Source: an uncultured delta proteobacterium (GTDB lineage: Bacteria > Desulfobacterota > Desulfomonilia > Desulfomonilales > Desulfomonilaceae). From it: a stretch of DNA of 64,000 nt. The position numbers were made by a program. Numbering within the stretch: the stretch's first letter is position 1; the number at the start of each line of letters is the position of its first letter. The DNA lies in NCBI GenBank assembly GCA_963789265.1, contig CAWBKB010000001.1:2527716-2591715 (forward strand), read 5' to 3'. Below are positions 41,801 to 59,800 of the stretch, piece after piece.

Positions 41801-44800
41801 GGATGAGCGCCTCAACCTTTCATCACCATTTCCGGTCGATGACCGCTTTAAGCCCCTTACAGTTCCTGAAACAGCTACGCTTGCAAGAAGCCAGACGACT
41901 GATGCTTACGGATCACCTGGATGCTGCGACTGCAGCTTTCCAAGTCGGTTACGAGAGTCCTTCGCAATTCAGCCGTGAATACAGCCGCTTATTCGGCGCA
42001 CCGCCGTTGCGAGATATTGCAAGCTTGCGTCAAATGGCGGCTGTTTAAGAAGTCCGATAGTGCGCAGGCACGGAGACATGAATGCGAAAGCGACTCTTCG
42101 AGCAGGGGTTTTGAGAATAACGGAATGGAAGTTCCGCTCGAAGCTCCGGGAAGGAGAATTGCCCGATTGGACCTCGCTGGATAAAATGTTGTAACCACGC
42201 AATGCCGTTGAAAGTGGCTGCTCACTAGCCTTCGATTCCCAAAAATCGGCTATTATTGCGTGTGTAACTTTACTCGAAGTATTTATCAAGCCCCATCAGG
42301 CTGTGTAATTTTTCAAAATTTGTCCTTTTCATTCGAAACATGACGGTTGCATAACTTAACCCCTCGAAGGGTAGAGCATATCGTTCAAGTCCCGGTTCCG
42401 TGCAGATGAGGCACTCTTGATGAGTGCCGGCGGTCCTACGAAACCGGGAGGCTTGATGCGATCGGACCAGGTTTTCAAAGGACTTGTCCTGAATGTTGCC
42501 AATGGAATAGTTGATAAGCGGGCAAGGATACACATCGCCGGTGCTTCGTATAAAGAAATAGTTGAATCCAGTAGTACAGGGTTTCTCCACACTCCCTGTT
42601 CGGAAATAATTCTGCAAGACGTTTCTGTGATAGCTCCAAGGAAATAGCTCCGTGGAATAGAAACTAGCGAGTTTGTCCAAATCTTTGGCACTGAATTGTA
42701 GTTCCTCACTATGATCGAGGTTGGCGTAGCGGACCTTCGTGAGAATCCGTGGAGAAATGATGGTGAATAATTCTCGATCTTGTGCAAACATTGCGATGGA
42801 AGTCAGGTGGTCGACATTTGCGGGAACGACGGTGGTTTTGAGACCGACCACAAGGTTTGGAAAAGCACGTCGCATTCTGCGGAGGCCGTCAATCGTTTGG
42901 AGAACCTTTGGCCAGGCACCCGATACGCCGCGGATTTTTTCATGGACCTCACCGATTGCATCGACGGCAACTGCAAACACCAAATCGATATGCCTACTAT
43001 TGAGGCGATCTGCCATGACGCCGGCCTTATTCAGTATGCGCCGCGTCAACAGACCGTTCGTTGTGACAGCCACGGTTCGCAATTTGGCGTACAGATCTGG
43101 TTTGTTGTGTGAAATCGCCTCCACGAGATTGACGATATCATCACTTAGGAACGGTTCGCCGCCGGTGATGTCAATTTCTCGGAGTTGCTTCAGCTCGCTT
43201 GACGCCAGGAGTTTCAACCACTCGGAAAGGGGAAGGTCTTTAACAGTGGCAGGAATCTTCCATATATTACACATCATGCATCGAGCGATGCACCGGTGAG
43301 TGATTTCCAAGGACAGCGCTTGAATTGGACAGCTCCCACCGGTTAGCCGGGAAATACGATAGCGGAGGCCGTTTCTTGCCAGCCTCAGCAAAAGTGGCAG
43401 GCTGCTCATGCGAACCTCACCGGGGGGAATCCGCAGCAAGAGATCTTTGATGTTTACGTTTTACCGACAGCCCCGGAAACACGGGAGAGAAGAACTTTTC
43501 CCTGAAACAGCCGAACCACACTCCTGACTGATACGAAAGCTGCTCCAAGGAAAAAATACCCAAAAAATACAGAATATTAATGTGTGGCTTTCGACTGGAA
43601 AACTCAATTGTTCCCACTCCTAAATGTGCCAGCCATATTGCCGCGGCAGCCACCGGAAAGGCAGGTGCCAGCAAGGTGGCGATAATAAGATAATATCGGG
43701 AGACAAACGAGCAAATCTGGTACATGAAGCTAAAATAGCTGCGAAACACCGCGACCAATACCTGCATCAACGGAACCGGGATTCCCATGTCGCGCACGCT
43801 TCGCCTTCTCATGACGGCGTCGCCCAGAGCCGTCACCGCGGCAAATGCGGCCGCCACAGGTTCTGCAAAAAGTGCCGTAATCAACAGTAACCAAAAGCAT
43901 ACCGCGGCAGGCAAGAGAGCGAACGTTTTTCTTCTTGCCGGATGAAGCGCCTGCAAGAGCGGTTCGCTTGTTCCGTATTCAAACCGTCTCATGCAAAAAG
44001 CTCTCAAGCGGTTTCTGTGCCGATGCAATACTCTTGCCGAGGGACGAAATTCGATCGAGCGGTTGCTGTCCATTATTCGCCAACAGAGGTCCACATCTTC
44101 GCCTACTTCCAGGGCTTCGTTGAATCCCCCCACCTTGAGAAAAAGCTCTCGACGTACCGCAAAATTGCAGGAGGGGAGGTAAAAGAATTTGCTTTTAAGG
44201 GTAGAATCGTTGCAGCGGATTTCAACCTGGAGCGGCGATTTAACCTTTTCGTAACGATCTAGAGGCTCTGTATCATCGTATGAATCTACCAATCCCCCCG
44301 CTGCTCCCACTTGCGGATCCTCGAAGACCGATGTAATTTCCAACAGCCACATTGAGTCCACGACACAATCTGAATCCACGAAGAGCAGTGTTTCGCCATC
44401 TGCTTGCCTTGCACCACGGTTGCGGCACGCTGACGCTCCCTGCCTCTTAGTCATGCGTTCCACCCTTACGGGAAAACGACTGACCACGTCGACGGTTTCA
44501 TCCTCGGAAGCATCGTCTACCACAACGATCTGCAGCTTCTCTTTGGGGTACGCGACCTCGAGAAGAGACTCGAGACATAGCTTGATTTCCGCGGCCCTGT
44601 TGCGGACCGGGATGACAACCGAAACAGTGGCCAGTGGCTCATGCACTGTTGCGCCGTAGCTCTCCAAAAAACCCATCTTTTCAAATCGATAAAGTAAGTG
44701 GTCCAACGAAGTCTCAGCGAGCGAAGGGGTGAGCTTAACCAGATTTTCGGCCGATCGAGGGCCCAAATCTTCTAGGTGGCGGAAGATCTCAGTGAGACCT

Positions 44801-56800: not shown

Positions 56801-59800
56801 GACAGATCCTTGCCCCATCCGGACTCCTTGCAACCTCCCCACGGCGTCTCGCAGAATAATATGAGATGCTCGTTTACCCACACTGTGCCGGCTTTGATCT
56901 GGGAAGCTGCCACGAGCCCCTGCGGAATATTCTTGGTCCATACCGAAGCGCACAAGCCATAGGGCGTGTCATTGGTAAGTGCAACCGCTTCTTCCAAAGA
57001 ACTGATCTTCACTAATCCAACTACAGGACCAAATATTTCCGATCTCATGAATTCCATGTCATTGGTACAGTTGCCGAAAACAGTGGGCGTAACGAAATAT
57101 CCATTCCGAGTCTCCGGTGTATTCGGACGCTCTCCTCCGCAAAGCAGTTTTGCCCCACTTTTCTTTGCAGATTCCACGAAGGACTCGATTTTGTCCCTGT
57201 GGGCCCGGGACGCGACCGGCCCCAAAACTGTAGCGGGGTCCATCGGATCGCCATAAGGTAGAGTCGAAGCGGCTTTCGCTAGTTTTTCTGCAAATTCGTC
57301 ATAGATAGATTCGTGGATATAGAACCGGCTTGCCGCAGCACATACTTGACCGCTGTTGAAGAAGGCTCCGAAAACAGCCCCCTCCACTGCAGAATCAACA
57401 TCTGCATCCGGCAGAACCACAAAGGAATTCTTTCCACCCAGCTCAAGTCCCACCTGTTTGACGCTGTCACTTGCGATGCGCATTATGCGCTTGCCGGTCG
57501 CCGTATCGCCTGTGAAACCTATCTTGGCCACTTTCGGGTGTCGTACGAGAGCTTCTCCGACTATGTCTCCGGCGCCGGTAAGGACGTTTACCGTGCCCGC
57601 GGGCGCTCCAGCTTCTACAAAGATCTCTGCAAGCTTGAGAGTGGTCAAGGGTGCAACGGACGGAGGCTTTACGATGCACGTGTTGCCGGTAACGAGGGCG
57701 GCTCCCAGTTTCCAAACCACCATCAGAGCAGGGAAGTTCCACGGAGTTATCAAACCGACCACTCCGTGCGGCTCACGCACAGTCATCGATAGACACCATG
57801 GACCGACAGGCAAAGTCTCGCCGGTCAATGACCGTGCAATACCTGCGAAATACTCCAATTGTTCAGCGCACATGGGCACATCGAAATTCATCGTTTTACG
57901 TATAGGGGACCCCTGCTCTGCAGTTTCGAGCATTGCAAGGGCCTCCTGCTGTTCCATGATCAGTTTGGAAGCTTTGTAAAGTATCTTAGAGCGATCCGTC
58001 ATCGTGCGGGCTGCCCAGCCCGGCGCTGCTGCCTCTGCAGCCTGGACGGCAGCGTCCACATCGGCAACTCCACATTTGGGGACCGTACCAACCACCTCTC
58101 CATTCGCGGGGTTGGTGACTTCGAAAGTTTCACCGCTTGCGGAGGATACCCATTGACCTCCGATGAGAACCTTGTAATCCTCTGCCATTTTGCTCTCCTT
58201 TATCGGCGCTGGAGCAACATCTTGGCGCTAACTCATCTTCCAGACGAGCCTTCCAAGTTCTGCCCTTGAGAGCGCCGACACGTCTTTAATCTGTTACGCA
58301 AACCGTCTGTCTTTAACGTCTTCGATTTCAGCAAACTGGAACTACAATTGCATTCCGTCTACGTTTACCGTCTCCCACTTATCCGGTTTTCCAACAGTCC
58401 TGGTTGCCCTAGGCCGTTTAGCGTTTATCCCATGGAGGTGCCAGCTTCACCTTCCACTTGGCCAAATCAAATGGGTAAACCATTTGCTGCTTACCGTCCC
58501 ACCACTGTGAACCCGTGCTCGTGAAAATGGCCACTCCATTGCTATCGTATTTTACCGGTCCCATGACCGTATCAAACTTGTTGGAGAGTACCGCATTCCG
58601 CACTTTGGCTCCGTCTAAAGTCCCTGAAGCCTCTATGGCCTTGAAGAGAGTCTGACACAACGCATAAGTTGCTCCCACGGAAACCGAATATTTCTTGAAC
58701 TCTTTGAAATATTTTTCTCCGAGTTCCTTGGCCCCGGGGTAAGGGAAATCCATTGTCCAGAAGCCGTCACACAGGACATACTGGGCATCTTTGTCCAATG
58801 CCTTCCAGAACTCCCCAGCCCAGGTGCCTTTCCAACCGTGCATGTACGGCACGCTGAAATTATTTTCCTTCATTTGTCTTACAAAAGTGATGCAGTCTGA
58901 ATCGGAAGTAAAGATGAGAATCGCATCTACTCCGGCCGTCTTCGCCTTGATGATTTGCGCCGAGTAGTCTCGAGAGTCCACGGCCAGCGGTTCGTCCAAG
59001 GCAAAACTGTAACCGTGCTTTTTGGCAATACTTCGAAACAGACCTGCGAACGCCCGACCGTCGGAGGTGTCCTCCATCAACAAAGCCGGCTTTTTAGGCC
59101 TGGTAGCTGCCGGAAGGGTTTCCCAGATTTGGAAGGGCACCGAACAGGCCTGCTGCAAATCAAAGAAATATAGGGTAGACCACTTGAAATGGTGCTCCAG
59201 CCATGGGGGTACCAGACATATAGACGTATGGTAGTACTTGTGATACTTCTCGGCCGCGATACACCCCGGGATGACGCCGAAAGGAGCGGCAAAACCGCCA
59301 AGGAGCATGTCAACCTTATCGACCTTGATCAATCTTTCGACCGCCTTACCGGCCTTTCCTGCATTGGACTCATCGTCGGCTACGATCAGTTTCACCTTGA
59401 GTTTCTTCCCATACTGCTTGACCAAGATGCCGCCTTTGGCGTTGACATCGTTAACCGCCTGTTCATACGACCACTTCTGCTCTCTCCCGGCACTGGACAA
59501 AATACCGGTCATGGGCAGGTTAGTCCCGATCAGGATTTCAGTCCTGTCCTGAGCTTGGGCAGGAAGACCCAAACCATAATCCATCATCGTTGCCGTCATT
59601 AGTAAAACAAGCAACACTTTCCATACCGATGTTTTCATGCCGTCTCCTTTCCACATTGTGGACCATGCTTAAGAACGAATAGTCGACCTTACGAATCCGG
59701 AACGCTGCTTACTTCCACCTGCCTACGCGGGATGAGGCCCATTATCCCGTCCGGCAGCCACAAGGCTAAGATTATAATGAACGCCCCTGAAAACAGTGGG

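Follow-up and report, generated by a model that had tools for sequence, protein, structure and literature searches.

In canonical mycofactocin (mft) clusters, mftD lies directly after mftC. The eLife paper names the canonical order as mftABCDEF, and a passage of Haft (2011) already remarks that neither MftD nor MftE is universally present. It is also already known, from the names of NCBIfam families, that FadH/OYE flavoenzymes (OYE) and ETF are tied to mycofactocin, and our literature search found no paper on an operon that joins mft genes to OYE, ETF, and a membrane module. Described relatives of the membrane module are EMO and EtfD, which excerpts of the EMO preprint present as biochemically characterised ETF:menaquinone oxidoreductases of Syntrophus and mycobacteria.

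The window (the whole 64,000-nucleotide stretch of DNA that was analysed) contains a row of 12 genes at 42270..58188, all on the minus strand, from an uncultured member of the Desulfomonilaceae, a sulfate-reducer-type anaerobe (Table 1). NCBIfam and Pfam matches and coordinates agree with the gene content and order given in an earlier note on this DNA. With two exceptions (gaps of 26 nt and 299 nt), the junctions within the row are overlapping or abutting, and the genes are mostly translationally coupled; the start of etfA has one base in common with the stop of OYE-b, the stop of etfA and the start of g02532 overlap by 4 nt, and the likely start of mftF at 44976 has one base in common with the etfB stop. 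The reading that we prefer, at about even odds, is that these genes make up a single operon of an "anaerobe-type" mycofactocin system that is widespread, with a private electron chain enclosed by mftA, mftB, mftC, and mftF. None of the NCBIfam models was over cut-off on the last gene of the row; homologues of this radical SAM/SPASM protein (46% to 69% identity) close many related clusters, and in locus L208 one lies directly 3' of a variant-type mftA.

Table 1 Genes of the mft row, in their order on the minus strand
Feature	Position	Strand	Evidence
Aldehyde dehydrogenase (Aldh), 493 aa	56707..58188	-	Pfam Aldedh 585 bits
Iron-type alcohol dehydrogenase (Fe-ADH), mycofactocin-linked kind	55442..56710, likely start 56653	-	Pfam Fe-ADH + ADH_Fe_C
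MftA precursor peptide, 46 aa, C-terminus IDGICGVY	54980..55120	-	TIGR03969 29.8 bits (cut-off 25)
MftB	54703..55002	-	TIGR03967 48.8 bits (cut-off 33)
MftC radical SAM maturase	53685..54725	-	TIGR03962 332.5 bits (cut-off 265)
OYE-a, FadH/OYE flavoenzyme, paralogue of OYE-b	51743..53695, likely start 53695	-	TIGR03997 712.3 bits (below cut-off 793.15)
OYE-b, FadH/OYE flavoenzyme, TIGR03997 "mycofactocin system FadH/OYE oxidoreductase 2"	49755..51716	-	857.9 bits (above cut-off 793.15)
EtfA, ETF large subunit	48706..49755	-	Pfam ETF + ETF_alpha
g02532, 856 aa, predicted heptahaem cytochrome c + EMO/EtfD-type ETF:quinone oxidoreductase fusion	46139..48709	-	Pfam, motifs, structure relatives
EtfB, ETF small subunit	44976..45839	-	Pfam ETF 95.9 bits
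MftF glycosyltransferase	43417..44976	-	TIGR03965 350.2 bits (cut-off 280)
Second radical SAM/SPASM protein, without named family	42270..43439	-	Pfam Radical_SAM + SPASM

The gene between etfA and etfB, g02532, encodes a signal or anchor (residues 5 to 23), seven CxxCH motifs (31, 62, 85, 105, 133, 172, and 193), five transmembrane helices (223 to 425), and a C-terminal part with two CxxCxxCxxxCP motifs at 481 and 541 and CCG motifs at 661 and 786. Pfam recognises Cytochrome_C7, Nitrate_red_gam, Fer4_8, and two CCG stretches, which bears out the previous description of the protein as seven CxxCH sites joined to a NarI-type haem-b domain, 4Fe-4S, and two CCG domains. An eighth CxxCH, at 541, was rejected as a haem site because it falls within a ferredoxin motif. 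The best solved relative is 9ojn_A (E = 7.6e-87), identified in the preprint excerpts as EMO/EtfD of M. smegmatis. Across 10 full-length homologues, all seven CxxCH motifs and exactly three transmembrane histidines (H290, H414, and H432) are invariant; the spacing of 18 residues between H414 and H432 equals that between His233 and His251 in the Syntrophus EMO, and the same excerpts describe all three haem-b ligands as kept in EMOs generally. Judged by its sequence, g02532 is a member of the EMO/EtfD family with a heptahaem cytochrome c fused N-terminally. A FastTree phylogeny of 76 EMO domains groups the 40 mft-linked domains in a single clade (support 98) and separates them from 35 others (support 100), which points to a dedicated lineage. 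By analogy with homologues of known biochemistry, the etfA-g02532-etfB unit very likely forms a working ETF:membrane oxidoreductase.

EtfA and EtfB both have "mycofactocin-associated ETF" models as their top NCBIfam matches, both below cut-off (120.5 vs 240 and 101.2 vs 200, respectively), and another ETF of the same genome outscores EtfA on the mycofactocin-associated ETF model. The best solved relatives of EtfA are bifurcating ETFs (5ol2, 6fah, 7qh2, and 4kpu), as would suit a FixABCX-like ETF that draws electron pairs from reduced mycofactocin or NADH and splits them between a high-potential branch, the membrane module, and a low-potential branch, OYE, so as to drive a difficult reduction. 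Of 57 related clusters, 11 have FixC and FixX, partners of a bifurcating ETF, in the slot that separates etfA from etfB, and OYE-b resembles a very-low-potential aryl-CoA reductase. However, the best solved relative of EtfB is the non-bifurcating Methylophilus ETF beta subunit (1o94/1o95, 91.5 bits), with the bifurcating kind scoring close (84 to 76 bits), and EMO and EtfD pair with non-bifurcating ETF according to an abstract and excerpts from the literature. We regard bifurcation as very unlikely.

A partner for the ETF is suggested by the two flavoenzymes. OYE-a has the FeS motif C-x2-D-x3-C-x11-C and a single GxGxxG. Among the best solved relatives of OYE-b, 2-naphthoyl-CoA reductase ranks first (298 bits) and 2,4-dienoyl-CoA reductase next; this group also takes in FadH and the dehydrogenases of trimethylamine and histamine. 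The second dinucleotide (Rossmann) site of the OYE enzymes is without GxGxxG in all 42 aligned homologues, an absence that OYE-b shares with trimethylamine dehydrogenase, and a Gln167/His170 pair is invariant in the alignment. Entries 1o94/1o95 hold a trimethylamine dehydrogenase chain together with ETF chains, and by analogy with this enzyme the OYE enzymes probably exchange electrons with the cluster ETF. Regarding their substrate, TIGR03997 is over cut-off in 13 of 401 genomes, comprising 13 of the 17 MftC-positive and none of the 384 MftC-negative genomes. On the basis of gene order and co-occurrence, the prospect that mycofactocin or its precursor is the OYE substrate stands roughly in the balance.

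Of the 401 genomes surveyed from the phylum Desulfobacterota, 17 have MftC over cut-off, which reproduces the earlier count, and 18 other MftC places were found, namely 17 in 16 other genomes (given previously as 16 loci in 15 genomes) and a second one in the host genome. Ten loci do have the order MftC-OYE-EtfA-X-EtfB, as claimed. The earlier note described X throughout as a gene of about 2.5 kb, with matches to g02532 at a coverage of at least 50% in five of the 10 loci; we find four, and X proves to be an EMO-type module in four loci (one fused, three with a 256- to 258-aa heptahaem gene plus EMO) and in the remaining six a pair of FixC-like and FixX-like genes, which spans about 1.7 kb but more in L125. 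In a wider set of 80 loci with an OYE-b homologue (56% to 89% identity), 70 had room 3' of OYE-b, and etfA follows directly in 69 of these; in L185, the one exception, a scaffold join of 100 N lies there. The slot contents are always a membrane or quinone module in the 57 loci showing both etfA and etfB: a fused cytochrome-EMO (11 loci), a separate heptahaem cytochrome plus EMO (28), EMO without cytochrome (6), the FixC and FixX pair in the 11 loci mentioned above, and an Hmc-like set (1). The presence of three unrelated module types in one slot argues that the conserved function is the ETF-to-membrane link. This pattern supports the conclusion that the ETF and membrane protein belong to such mft operons as conserved, integral components and are no chance neighbours. 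MftC (more than 40% identity) is present in 50 of the 80 loci; in 13 loci with upstream room, canonical MftC is absent before the OYE genes, and some of these have a variant MftA and other radical SAM genes.

The same module also occurs elsewhere; the earlier note had itself cautioned that pairs of ETF and membrane FeS oxidoreductase are common in syntrophs and could serve the OYE/FadH enzymes and not mycofactocin. Locus L008, from a genome that lacks MftC, has a fused cytochrome-EMO in the same etfA-X-etfB order, with genes for an acyl-CoA dehydrogenase and an acyl-CoA ligase next to it, and another MftC-less genome (L077) has OYE (39% to 44% identity), ETF, and EMO together. The module is not specific to mycofactocin, and the chain can serve ordinary substrates. 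This allows a reading in which OYE act on enoyl-, dienoyl-, or aromatic acyl-CoA, or on an unsaturated aldehyde or acid, via the ETF and membrane complex as in enoyl-CoA respiration, and mycofactocin has only regulation or a catabolic pathway (alcohol/aldehyde oxidation) in common with them. The top solved relative of OYE-b is indeed an aromatic acyl-CoA reductase, not a dehydrogenase, and the excerpts on Syntrophus describe ETF plus EMO as a known route between acyl-CoA dehydrogenases and methylmenaquinone, used in both directions. However, in the survey above only MftC-positive genomes have the OYE-b clade, the OYE genes lie inside the stretch from mftC to mftF and their reading frames overlap with those around them, NCBIfam and Pfam identified no gene for a CoA ligase, CoA transferase, hydratase, or thiolase in the cluster, and the arrangement is constant over several phyla, whichever of the three kinds of membrane module is present. 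We consider this reading unlikely.

Genes for dehydrogenases travel with the cluster, suggesting catabolic flux. Homologues of Fe-ADH (71% to 84% identity) adjoin it in L133, L142, L152, L198, L203, and L204, and homologues of Aldh (72% to 74% identity) in L004, L142, L152, and L198. In NCBIfam, Fe-ADH has its second-best match to NDMA-dependent methanol dehydrogenase, at 251.7 bits and under the cut-off of that model, and it has TSNPKDYEC where a passage of Haft (2011) places the hot spot of Fe-ADHs linked to mycofactocin (TSNPKDYEVH).

A profile search of the whole host genome (6.06 Mb, 9 contigs, 95.57% complete, 6.07% contamination) gave 22-bit partial matches at most for MftD (cut-off 470.85) and zero matches for MftE and MftG at E <= 0.001, so that the absence of all three, as previously claimed, holds at these cut-offs. 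MftD is likewise absent from all 67 genomes carrying this cluster type or MftC (0/17 MftC-positive and 0/50 further genomes), MftE is over cut-off in none of the same two sets (0/17 and 0/50), and MftG was found in 0 of 38 genomes. Together with the position of the OYE block directly after mftC, the place of mftD, and with the C-N bond oxidation by FMN and an Fe-S cluster in the solved relatives histamine and trimethylamine dehydrogenase, the lack of MftD would fit a role in maturation only, in which OYE replace MftD anaerobically in the oxidative deamination of the amino precursor AHDP to the keto form, the ETF and membrane protein are an electron sink, and the cofactor is recycled by another route. 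A dedicated ETF and a five- to eight-cofactor membrane complex would, however, be a heavy outlay for a step taken once per cofactor molecule, and the dehydrogenase genes that travel with the cluster also speak against it. Further, the minimal mft cluster that the host genome carries as its second, on contig 4 (MftA/B/C/F, without OYE or ETF) and the related genome G369 (MftA/B/C/F, without ETF, and with no OYE match at E <= 1e-150) lack both MftD and OYE; mft clusters function, or at least persist, without the OYE-ETF chain. A role restricted to maturation is unlikely, and maturation as such is compatible with the respiratory reading, since one active site could oxidise amine and alcohol at the same carbon.

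The respiratory link proposed in the earlier note is plausible from gene order. The integral ETF and membrane protein, the homology of g02532 to EMO, the MftC-only OYE-b clade, and the lack of MftD, MftE, and MftG speak for it, and the occurrence of the module without mycofactocin speaks against it. The proposed role as counterpart of MftG was overstated; the OYE enzymes may equally, or also, stand in for the O2-dependent MftD. In the respiratory reading, the nicotinoprotein-type Fe-ADH, and perhaps Aldh too, would yield reduced mycofactocin. Like trimethylamine dehydrogenase, the FadH/OYE enzymes have FMN and Fe-S but no canonical site for NAD(P)H. Acting at the redox carbon of the mycofactocin scaffold, they would return the reduced cofactor to its oxidised form and probably also carry out, without O2, a step on the amino precursor equivalent to that of MftD. 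Single electrons would pass from OYE to the dedicated EtfAB, which may dock on the cytoplasmic Fe-S/CCG domain of g02532, and from there via the haem-b domain across the membrane; they would end up on menaquinone, in the periplasmic cytochrome pool by way of the seven periplasmic c-haems, or in both. Gene order and co-occurrence make this outward electron flow plausible. The chain is well conserved, and its gene order makes it a candidate way for such anaerobes to finish and recycle mycofactocin without the mycobacterial enzymes.

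The mycofactocin (mft) genes of the window lie in an unbroken row on the minus strand, and NCBIfam and Pfam models recover the gene order reported in the earlier note in full (see the table). When the likely start codons are used, only two junctions in the row leave a gap, that between the two FadH/OYE flavoenzyme genes OYE-a and OYE-b (26 nt) and that between g02532 and etfB (299 nt); all others overlap or abut, and the row is therefore read as one operon. The g02532-etfB gap is about 100 nt in a close relative, locus L004 of another Desulfomonilaceae MAG. The predicted MftA is a 46-aa ORF that ends in IDGICGVY and so includes the Val-Tyr core. 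The iron-type alcohol dehydrogenase (Fe-ADH) carries TSNPKDYEC at the hot-spot position of mycofactocin-linked Fe-ADHs, the linked form being TSNPKDYEVH in Haft's analysis (Haft 2011). Since OYE-a scores below the cut-off of TIGR03997, it is considered a paralogue outside that model. A search of sequencing runs for window 45000-54900 listed six DNA-type data sets from two studies and none of RNA.

The last gene of the row encodes a second radical SAM/SPASM protein. Its homologues (46-69% identity) end many related clusters; in locus L208 the homologue directly follows a variant-type MftA, in place of MftB and MftC ahead of the OYE genes, and in locus L186 it lies beside an MftC-like protein of only 114 bits. 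This gene may encode a further, undescribed maturase of mycofactocin-type peptides.

Positions of the mft operon, its surroundings and related features on other contigs (scores in bits)
Feature	Sequence	Position	Strand	Basis or remark
ABC transporter genes, branched-chain-amino-acid type	window	58418-60756		upstream of operon
Whole row, unbroken	window	58188-42270	-	NCBIfam and Pfam
Aldehyde dehydrogenase	window	first gene of row	-	NCBIfam/Pfam
Fe-ADH	window	after aldehyde dehydrogenase	-	NCBIfam/Pfam
MftA	window		-	TIGR03969, 29.8 vs cut-off 25
MftB	window		-	48.8 vs cut-off 33
MftC	window		-	332.5 vs cut-off 265
OYE-a	window	51743-53695	-	TIGR03997, 712.3, under cut-off 793.15
OYE-b	window	49755-51716	-	TIGR03997, 857.9, over cut-off 793.15
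EtfA	window	consecutive with g02532	-	NCBIfam/Pfam
g02532 (856 aa)	window	46139-48709	-	NCBIfam/Pfam
Gap, g02532 to etfB	window	45840-46138
EtfB	window	consecutive with g02532	-	NCBIfam/Pfam
MftF	window		-	350.2 vs cut-off 280
Second radical SAM/SPASM protein	window	42270-43439	-	no family cut-off reached
AraC-family regulator	window	41137-42048	+	divergent, just downstream of operon
Second Fe-ADH	window	39761-40984	-	just downstream of operon
Second mft cluster of same genome	contig 4 (L122)	7634-14459
Mycofactocin-coupled SDR	contig 4			NF040490, 522 vs 385
Variant-type MftA	contig 4			NF040489, 55.2 vs 30
MftB, MftC, MftF	contig 4			MftC 367
Hmc-like gene set	L060, same contig as L164	5385-11416		Desulfobacula MAG
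Second radical SAM/SPASM homologue	L208	6296-7680		region with the homologue after a variant-type MftA
Second radical SAM/SPASM homologue	L186	18146-21219		region with the homologue beside an MftC-like protein

By homology, g02532 is an ETF:menaquinone oxidoreductase of the EMO/EtfD type whose periplasmic end is extended by a fused heptahaem cytochrome c. Its hydrophobic N-terminus (residues 5-23, a signal or anchor) is followed by seven CxxCH sites that span 31-193, by five hydrophobic helices within 223-425 with a strongly basic loop after helix 1, CxxCxxCxxxCP motifs at 481 and 541, and a CCG match of 108.7 bits in two stretches. The odd number of helices places the c-haem part on the periplasmic side and the Fe-S part in the cytoplasm. 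An eighth CxxCH, at 541, was rejected as a haem site because it sits inside the ferredoxin motif. The assignment to EMO/EtfD is based on the best solved relative, 9ojn_A (E = 7.6e-87, best stretch at residues 533-843), and on three conserved haem-b histidines. Entry 9OJN is the M. smegmatis enzyme, named EtfD or MsEMO (EMO preprint; EMBO J 2026). Among 10 full-length g02532 homologues, H290, H414 and H432 are the only invariant transmembrane histidines, and the 18 residues from H414 to H432 equal the spacing of His233 and His251 in the Syntrophus EMO (SaEMO). In that enzyme, His87, His233 and His251 bind the haems b and are described as conserved in all EMO-like domains (EMO preprint). All seven CxxCH sites are likewise invariant in the 10 homologues, as are histidines 56, 74, 112, 158, 182 and 211, which are candidates for distal ligands. 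On the strength of the export signal and these conserved residues, the N-terminal part is a c-type multihaem cytochrome with predicted haem attachment, and family membership predicts that g02532 oxidises reduced ETF and reduces (methyl)menaquinone.

The likeness to EMO of Syntrophus aciditrophicus and to EtfD (Rv0338c family) thus comprises a NarI/HdrE-like five-helix haem-b domain that has the three ligand histidines, a pair of cubane Fe-S motifs, a pair of CCG (non-cubane cluster) domains and a location beside etfA and etfB (mBio 2022; EMBO J 2026). However, g02532 has approximately 200 extra N-terminal residues with the signal or anchor and the seven periplasmic CxxCH sites, its EMO domain falls into a separate clade from other EMOs, and its partner enzymes are the FadH/OYE proteins of an mft operon rather than acyl-CoA dehydrogenases. 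A text search of the EMO preprint did not find the term "cytochrome c". The Tmc and Hmc complexes of sulfate reducers share the three layers of g02532, a periplasmic multihaem cytochrome c, a membrane cytochrome b and a cytoplasmic HdrD-like CCG protein, but in g02532 all layers are in a single polypeptide and the cytoplasmic partner is an ETF. The resemblance is architectural only, as g02532 is not a member of TmcB (80.1 bits vs 735) or HmcF (85.1 vs 750).

Of 8000 scored candidates from a collection of 5.8 billion proteins, 888 match g02532 at E ≤ 1e-10. Nine of the 120 matches listed, besides the query, span 97-100% of g02532 (836-871 aa), and nearly all others on that list are about 560-720 aa and cover the EMO part only. 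A FastTree phylogeny of the EMO part (76 rows, excluding those with HSPs shorter than 450 residues; SH-like local supports, midpoint root) places the 40 mft-linked rows in one clade (support 98) with L008, a locus from a genome without MftC, as sister, and sets the 35 other EMO rows apart (support 100). Fused and split forms are interleaved in this tree, with well-supported branches forcing at least six changes. The ancestral state would thus be a cytochrome paired with EMO, and the fusion in the window a labile variant of it. The window arrangement is a cytochrome-c-fused, mft-dedicated EMO lineage, a variant of a catalogued yet uncharacterised cluster type.

Of 401 Desulfobacterota genomes, 17 have an MftC above its cut-off, the count given in the earlier note, at 19 places in all, one of which is a second place in the window's own genome. 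The 18 other places comprise 10 with the order MftC-OYE-EtfA-X-EtfB (X being the gene or genes between etfA and etfB), four cut by contig ends and four minimal clusters with only MftA/B, MftC and MftF. The order proposed previously for 10 loci therefore stands, but X is not a single gene of about 2.5 kb throughout: it is of the EMO type in four, either as a fused cytochrome-EMO (1/10, L120) or as a heptahaem cytochrome of 256-258 aa with its own gene ahead of EMO (3/10; L117, L118, and L124), and consists of a FixC-like flavoprotein with a weak ETFQO_UQ-bd match plus a FixX-like ferredoxin in the other six.

The same picture emerges from an alignment-based scan with OYE-b, which gave 80 loci (56-89% identity) from Desulfobacterota, Dehalococcoidia and other Chloroflexota, Geobacteraceae, Syntrophorhabdaceae, and others, including the isolate Desulfosarcina variabilis (L198). 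Ten of these end within 900 bp past OYE-b, and etfA is the next gene in 69 of the 70 that can be assessed. Loci L185, the one departure among the 70, and L167 were rejected as exceptions, since both have a 100-N join at that point; these "chromosome" records are bins with 100-N spacers every few kb, which makes gene order across the joins meaningless. Where both etfA and etfB are seen (n = 57), the slot holds a separate cytochrome plus EMO in 28 loci, a fused cytochrome-EMO in 11, FixC plus FixX in 11, EMO without a cytochrome in six (ORFs of 597-668 aa) and an Hmc-like set in one. The latter, in a Desulfobacula MAG (L060/L164), encodes a 16-haem cytochrome, a Fer4_11 protein, an NrfD membrane protein, a 100-aa ORF and a CCG protein, with no EMO. 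Seven further loci are cut, yet a cytochrome or FixC is already visible; nothing recognisable follows etfA in five, four of which end there and one of which has an N join. The arrangement is real and strongly conserved. Clusters of the FixCX type (mftABC-OYE-etfA-fixC-fixX-etfB-mftF), found in Geobacter, Dehalococcoidia and Syntrophorhabdaceae among others, share the operon plan, the OYE-b family and the split etfA/etfB with the window. They differ in having one OYE gene rather than two paralogues, and a flavoprotein and ferredoxin where the window has a transmembrane haem protein with periplasmic c-haems.

Outside these clusters the module appears in other company. An alignment-based scan gave 81 loci with an EMO relative. 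In 27 of the 81, etfB and etfA are side by side next to EMO, unlike in the window; the split order etfA-EMO-etfB occurs in four (L004, L005, L008, and L060). With identities of 54-89%, L004 repeats the whole row of the window. In L008 the gene between etfA and etfB encodes a fused cytochrome-EMO, with an acyl-CoA dehydrogenase and an AMP-forming ligase upstream, and L077 combines two OYE homologues with ETF and EMO; both genomes are without MftC. Nine of the 81 loci have a multihaem ORF (at least four CxxCH) no more than 3.5 kb from EMO, and five of the nine are from Eubacteriales MAGs with no mft genes in the available stretch. In these five (L014, L024, L025, L029, and L035), an ORF of 186-256 aa with six CxxCH is directly upstream of an EMO outside the mft clade, suggesting repeated pairing of EMO with a cytochrome c. 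Together with L008 and L077, these multihaem ORFs indicate that etfA-EMO-etfB is an independent unit linking ETF to the membrane. The module would serve other enzymes in L008 and L077, which counts against a role tied to mycofactocin. Two further observations count against it: the closest solved relative of OYE-b is a reductase, and mft clusters exist without the chain. An example of the latter is the contig-4 cluster assigned to the window's own genome (a MAG with 6% contamination), which has no OYE or ETF and is followed directly by LarE, LarB and LarC of nickel-pincer cofactor synthesis. On the other side is the distribution of OYE-b's family. Of the 401 genomes, 13 have a TIGR03997 match over the cut-off, and each of the 13 is MftC-positive. 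The best MftC-negative genome reaches 695 bits; the remaining four MftC-positive genomes have two partial cut matches, one match of 736 bits and, in G369, none at E ≤ 1e-150. Against the tie to mycofactocin, 13 of the OYE-b loci with upstream room have no canonical MftC ahead of the OYE genes. The respiratory link to mycofactocin proposed in the earlier note is plausible and consistent with the operon, its conserved arrangement and the EMO/EtfD homology of g02532.

The enzymes at the start of the putative chain belong to families in which electron transfer to an ETF has a precedent. Ranked by score, the solved structures closest to OYE-b are those of 2-naphthoyl-CoA reductase (298 bits), FadH (242), trimethylamine dehydrogenase (213) and histamine dehydrogenase (206). 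Trimethylamine dehydrogenase of Methylophilus methylotrophus (212.6 bits) has the same FMN/Fe-S/ADP-type fold, and OYE-b resembles it, and not FadH, in lacking GxGxxG in the second dinucleotide fold, as do 42 of 42 aligned homologues. OYE-b differs from it in having no counterpart of the covalent-FMN cysteine, with an identity of 30-35% at most; the trimethylamine dehydrogenase entry aligned carries a mutation there. Among the OYE homologues, Gln167 and His170 do not vary. Both window proteins have Asp in place of the second Fe-S cysteine (residue 346 in OYE-b, 384 in OYE-a; C-x2-D-x3-C-x11-C). The substitution was rejected as a family trait, being present in only 5 of 42 EMO-type homologues; in a mixed homologue set it occurs in 6 of 12. 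EtfB has the Methylophilus ETF beta chain as its best solved relative (entries 1o94 and 1o95, which also list trimethylamine dehydrogenase), and EtfA has bifurcating ETFs, so that the ranking is mixed between ETF types. Membership of the two in the mycofactocin-associated ETF models of NCBIfam, their best hits there, was rejected (NF038209, 120.5 vs 240 bits; TIGR04503, 101.2 vs 200). Other ETFs of the same genomes outscore the cluster EtfA on the mycofactocin-associated model, and the alpha-subunit model NF038209 reaches its cut-off in none of the 17 MftC-positive genomes.

The canonical mftABCDEF-plus-MftG system of Mycobacterium and Rhodococcus and the window cluster have in common MftA, MftB, MftC and MftF over their cut-offs and an adjoining gene for a nicotinoprotein-type dehydrogenase. 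In contrast, the carrier of the window is an anaerobe without MftD, MftE or MftG. The absence of all three, already stated in the earlier note, holds for the whole 95.57%-complete genome (6.06 Mb, 9 contigs, 6.07% contamination) under curated profiles: MftD (TIGR03966) yields only 22-bit partial matches against a cut-off of 470.85, MftE (TIGR03964) has no match at E ≤ 0.001 and MftG (TIGR03970) has no match. It extends to related genomes, including 50 further ones selected from the 80 OYE-b loci by preferring longer contexts and leaving out contigs of genomes already covered. None of the 17 MftC-positive genomes has an MftD match at E ≤ 1e-10 and MftD is under cut-off in all 50 others (best 174 bits vs 470.85), MftE is under cut-off in 17/17 and 50/50 (best 170.4 vs 172), and MftG is absent from 38/38 genomes carrying this cluster type or MftC. 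Creatininase-type matches close to the MftE cut-off (150-170 vs 172 bits) were seen in eight genomes (G410, G416, G408, G442, G450, G424, G413, and G422), seven of them in frames of about 780-870 aa and that of G410 in a 253-aa frame; where positions were compared (G413 and G450) they are far from the mft cluster, and the window's genome has none. In the MftG study, 76 of 311 mftC genomes, a quarter, were without mftG (eLife 2025).

The best-supported path for electrons would run from OYE to ETF to g02532. The step from ETF to g02532 has a direct biochemical precedent in EMO and EtfD, and that from OYE to ETF a precedent within the same fold family in trimethylamine dehydrogenase. The case for mycofactocin or its amino precursor (AHDP) as the putative OYE substrate has four parts only: strict co-occurrence, placement of the OYE genes between mftC and mftF, the absence of MftD and MftG and the adjoining dehydrogenase genes. 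The proposed role, delivery of mycofactocin electrons to the respiratory membrane, is that of MftG in M. smegmatis (eLife 2025), though MftG is a single GMC flavoprotein and the window chain would take four to five genes of unrelated families. The direction of electron flow is left as a proposal, given that the Syntrophus EMO runs both ways (mBio 2022). From the periplasmic haems of g02532, and by analogy with the Tmc and Hmc complexes, electrons may travel past the quinone site and reach periplasmic cytochromes, a route in keeping with the Hmc-like slot of L060/L164. The mechanism of the whole chain is proposed and plausible. A broader reading is possible but doubtful, namely that these anaerobes have a complete NAD-independent respiratory entry built on mycofactocin. 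In that case nicotinoprotein alcohol/aldehyde dehydrogenases would load the cofactor, and one FadH/OYE-type Fe-S flavoenzyme would both finish it without O2 (the MftD step) and re-oxidise it (the MftG step). A private ETF would then pass electrons to the dedicated EMO with its heptahaem cytochrome and on to the pool of periplasmic cytochromes, either around the quinone pool or in addition to it, and g02532 would be an ETF-driven, single-polypeptide, Tmc-like conduit of a kind not yet described.

The novelty is smaller than first thought, since curators had already named both families after mycofactocin: TIGR03996 and TIGR03997 for the OYE proteins, and TIGR04503 and NF038209 as mycofactocin-associated ETF models. 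A literature search, of a kind that misses most subscription journals and supplements, found no paper joining "mycofactocin" with "ETF" or "electron transfer flavoprotein", and none on an ETF link in mycofactocin literature with Geobacter or, by title and abstract start, sulfate-reducing bacteria; the MftG paper does not mention ETF, OYE or Geobacter (eLife 2025). Re-oxidation of mycofactocin is known only for mycobacteria, via MftG (eLife 2025). The cluster type is a concrete, testable candidate for re-oxidation without MftG and for finishing without the O2-dependent MftD, and it occurs in cultivable strains such as Desulfosarcina variabilis. It also extends the newly solved EMO/EtfD family by one lineage coupled, by fusion or an adjacent gene, to a periplasmic heptahaem cytochrome, a coupling through which, in sulfate reducers and syntrophs, ETF would donate electrons to the network of periplasmic cytochromes or accept them from it.
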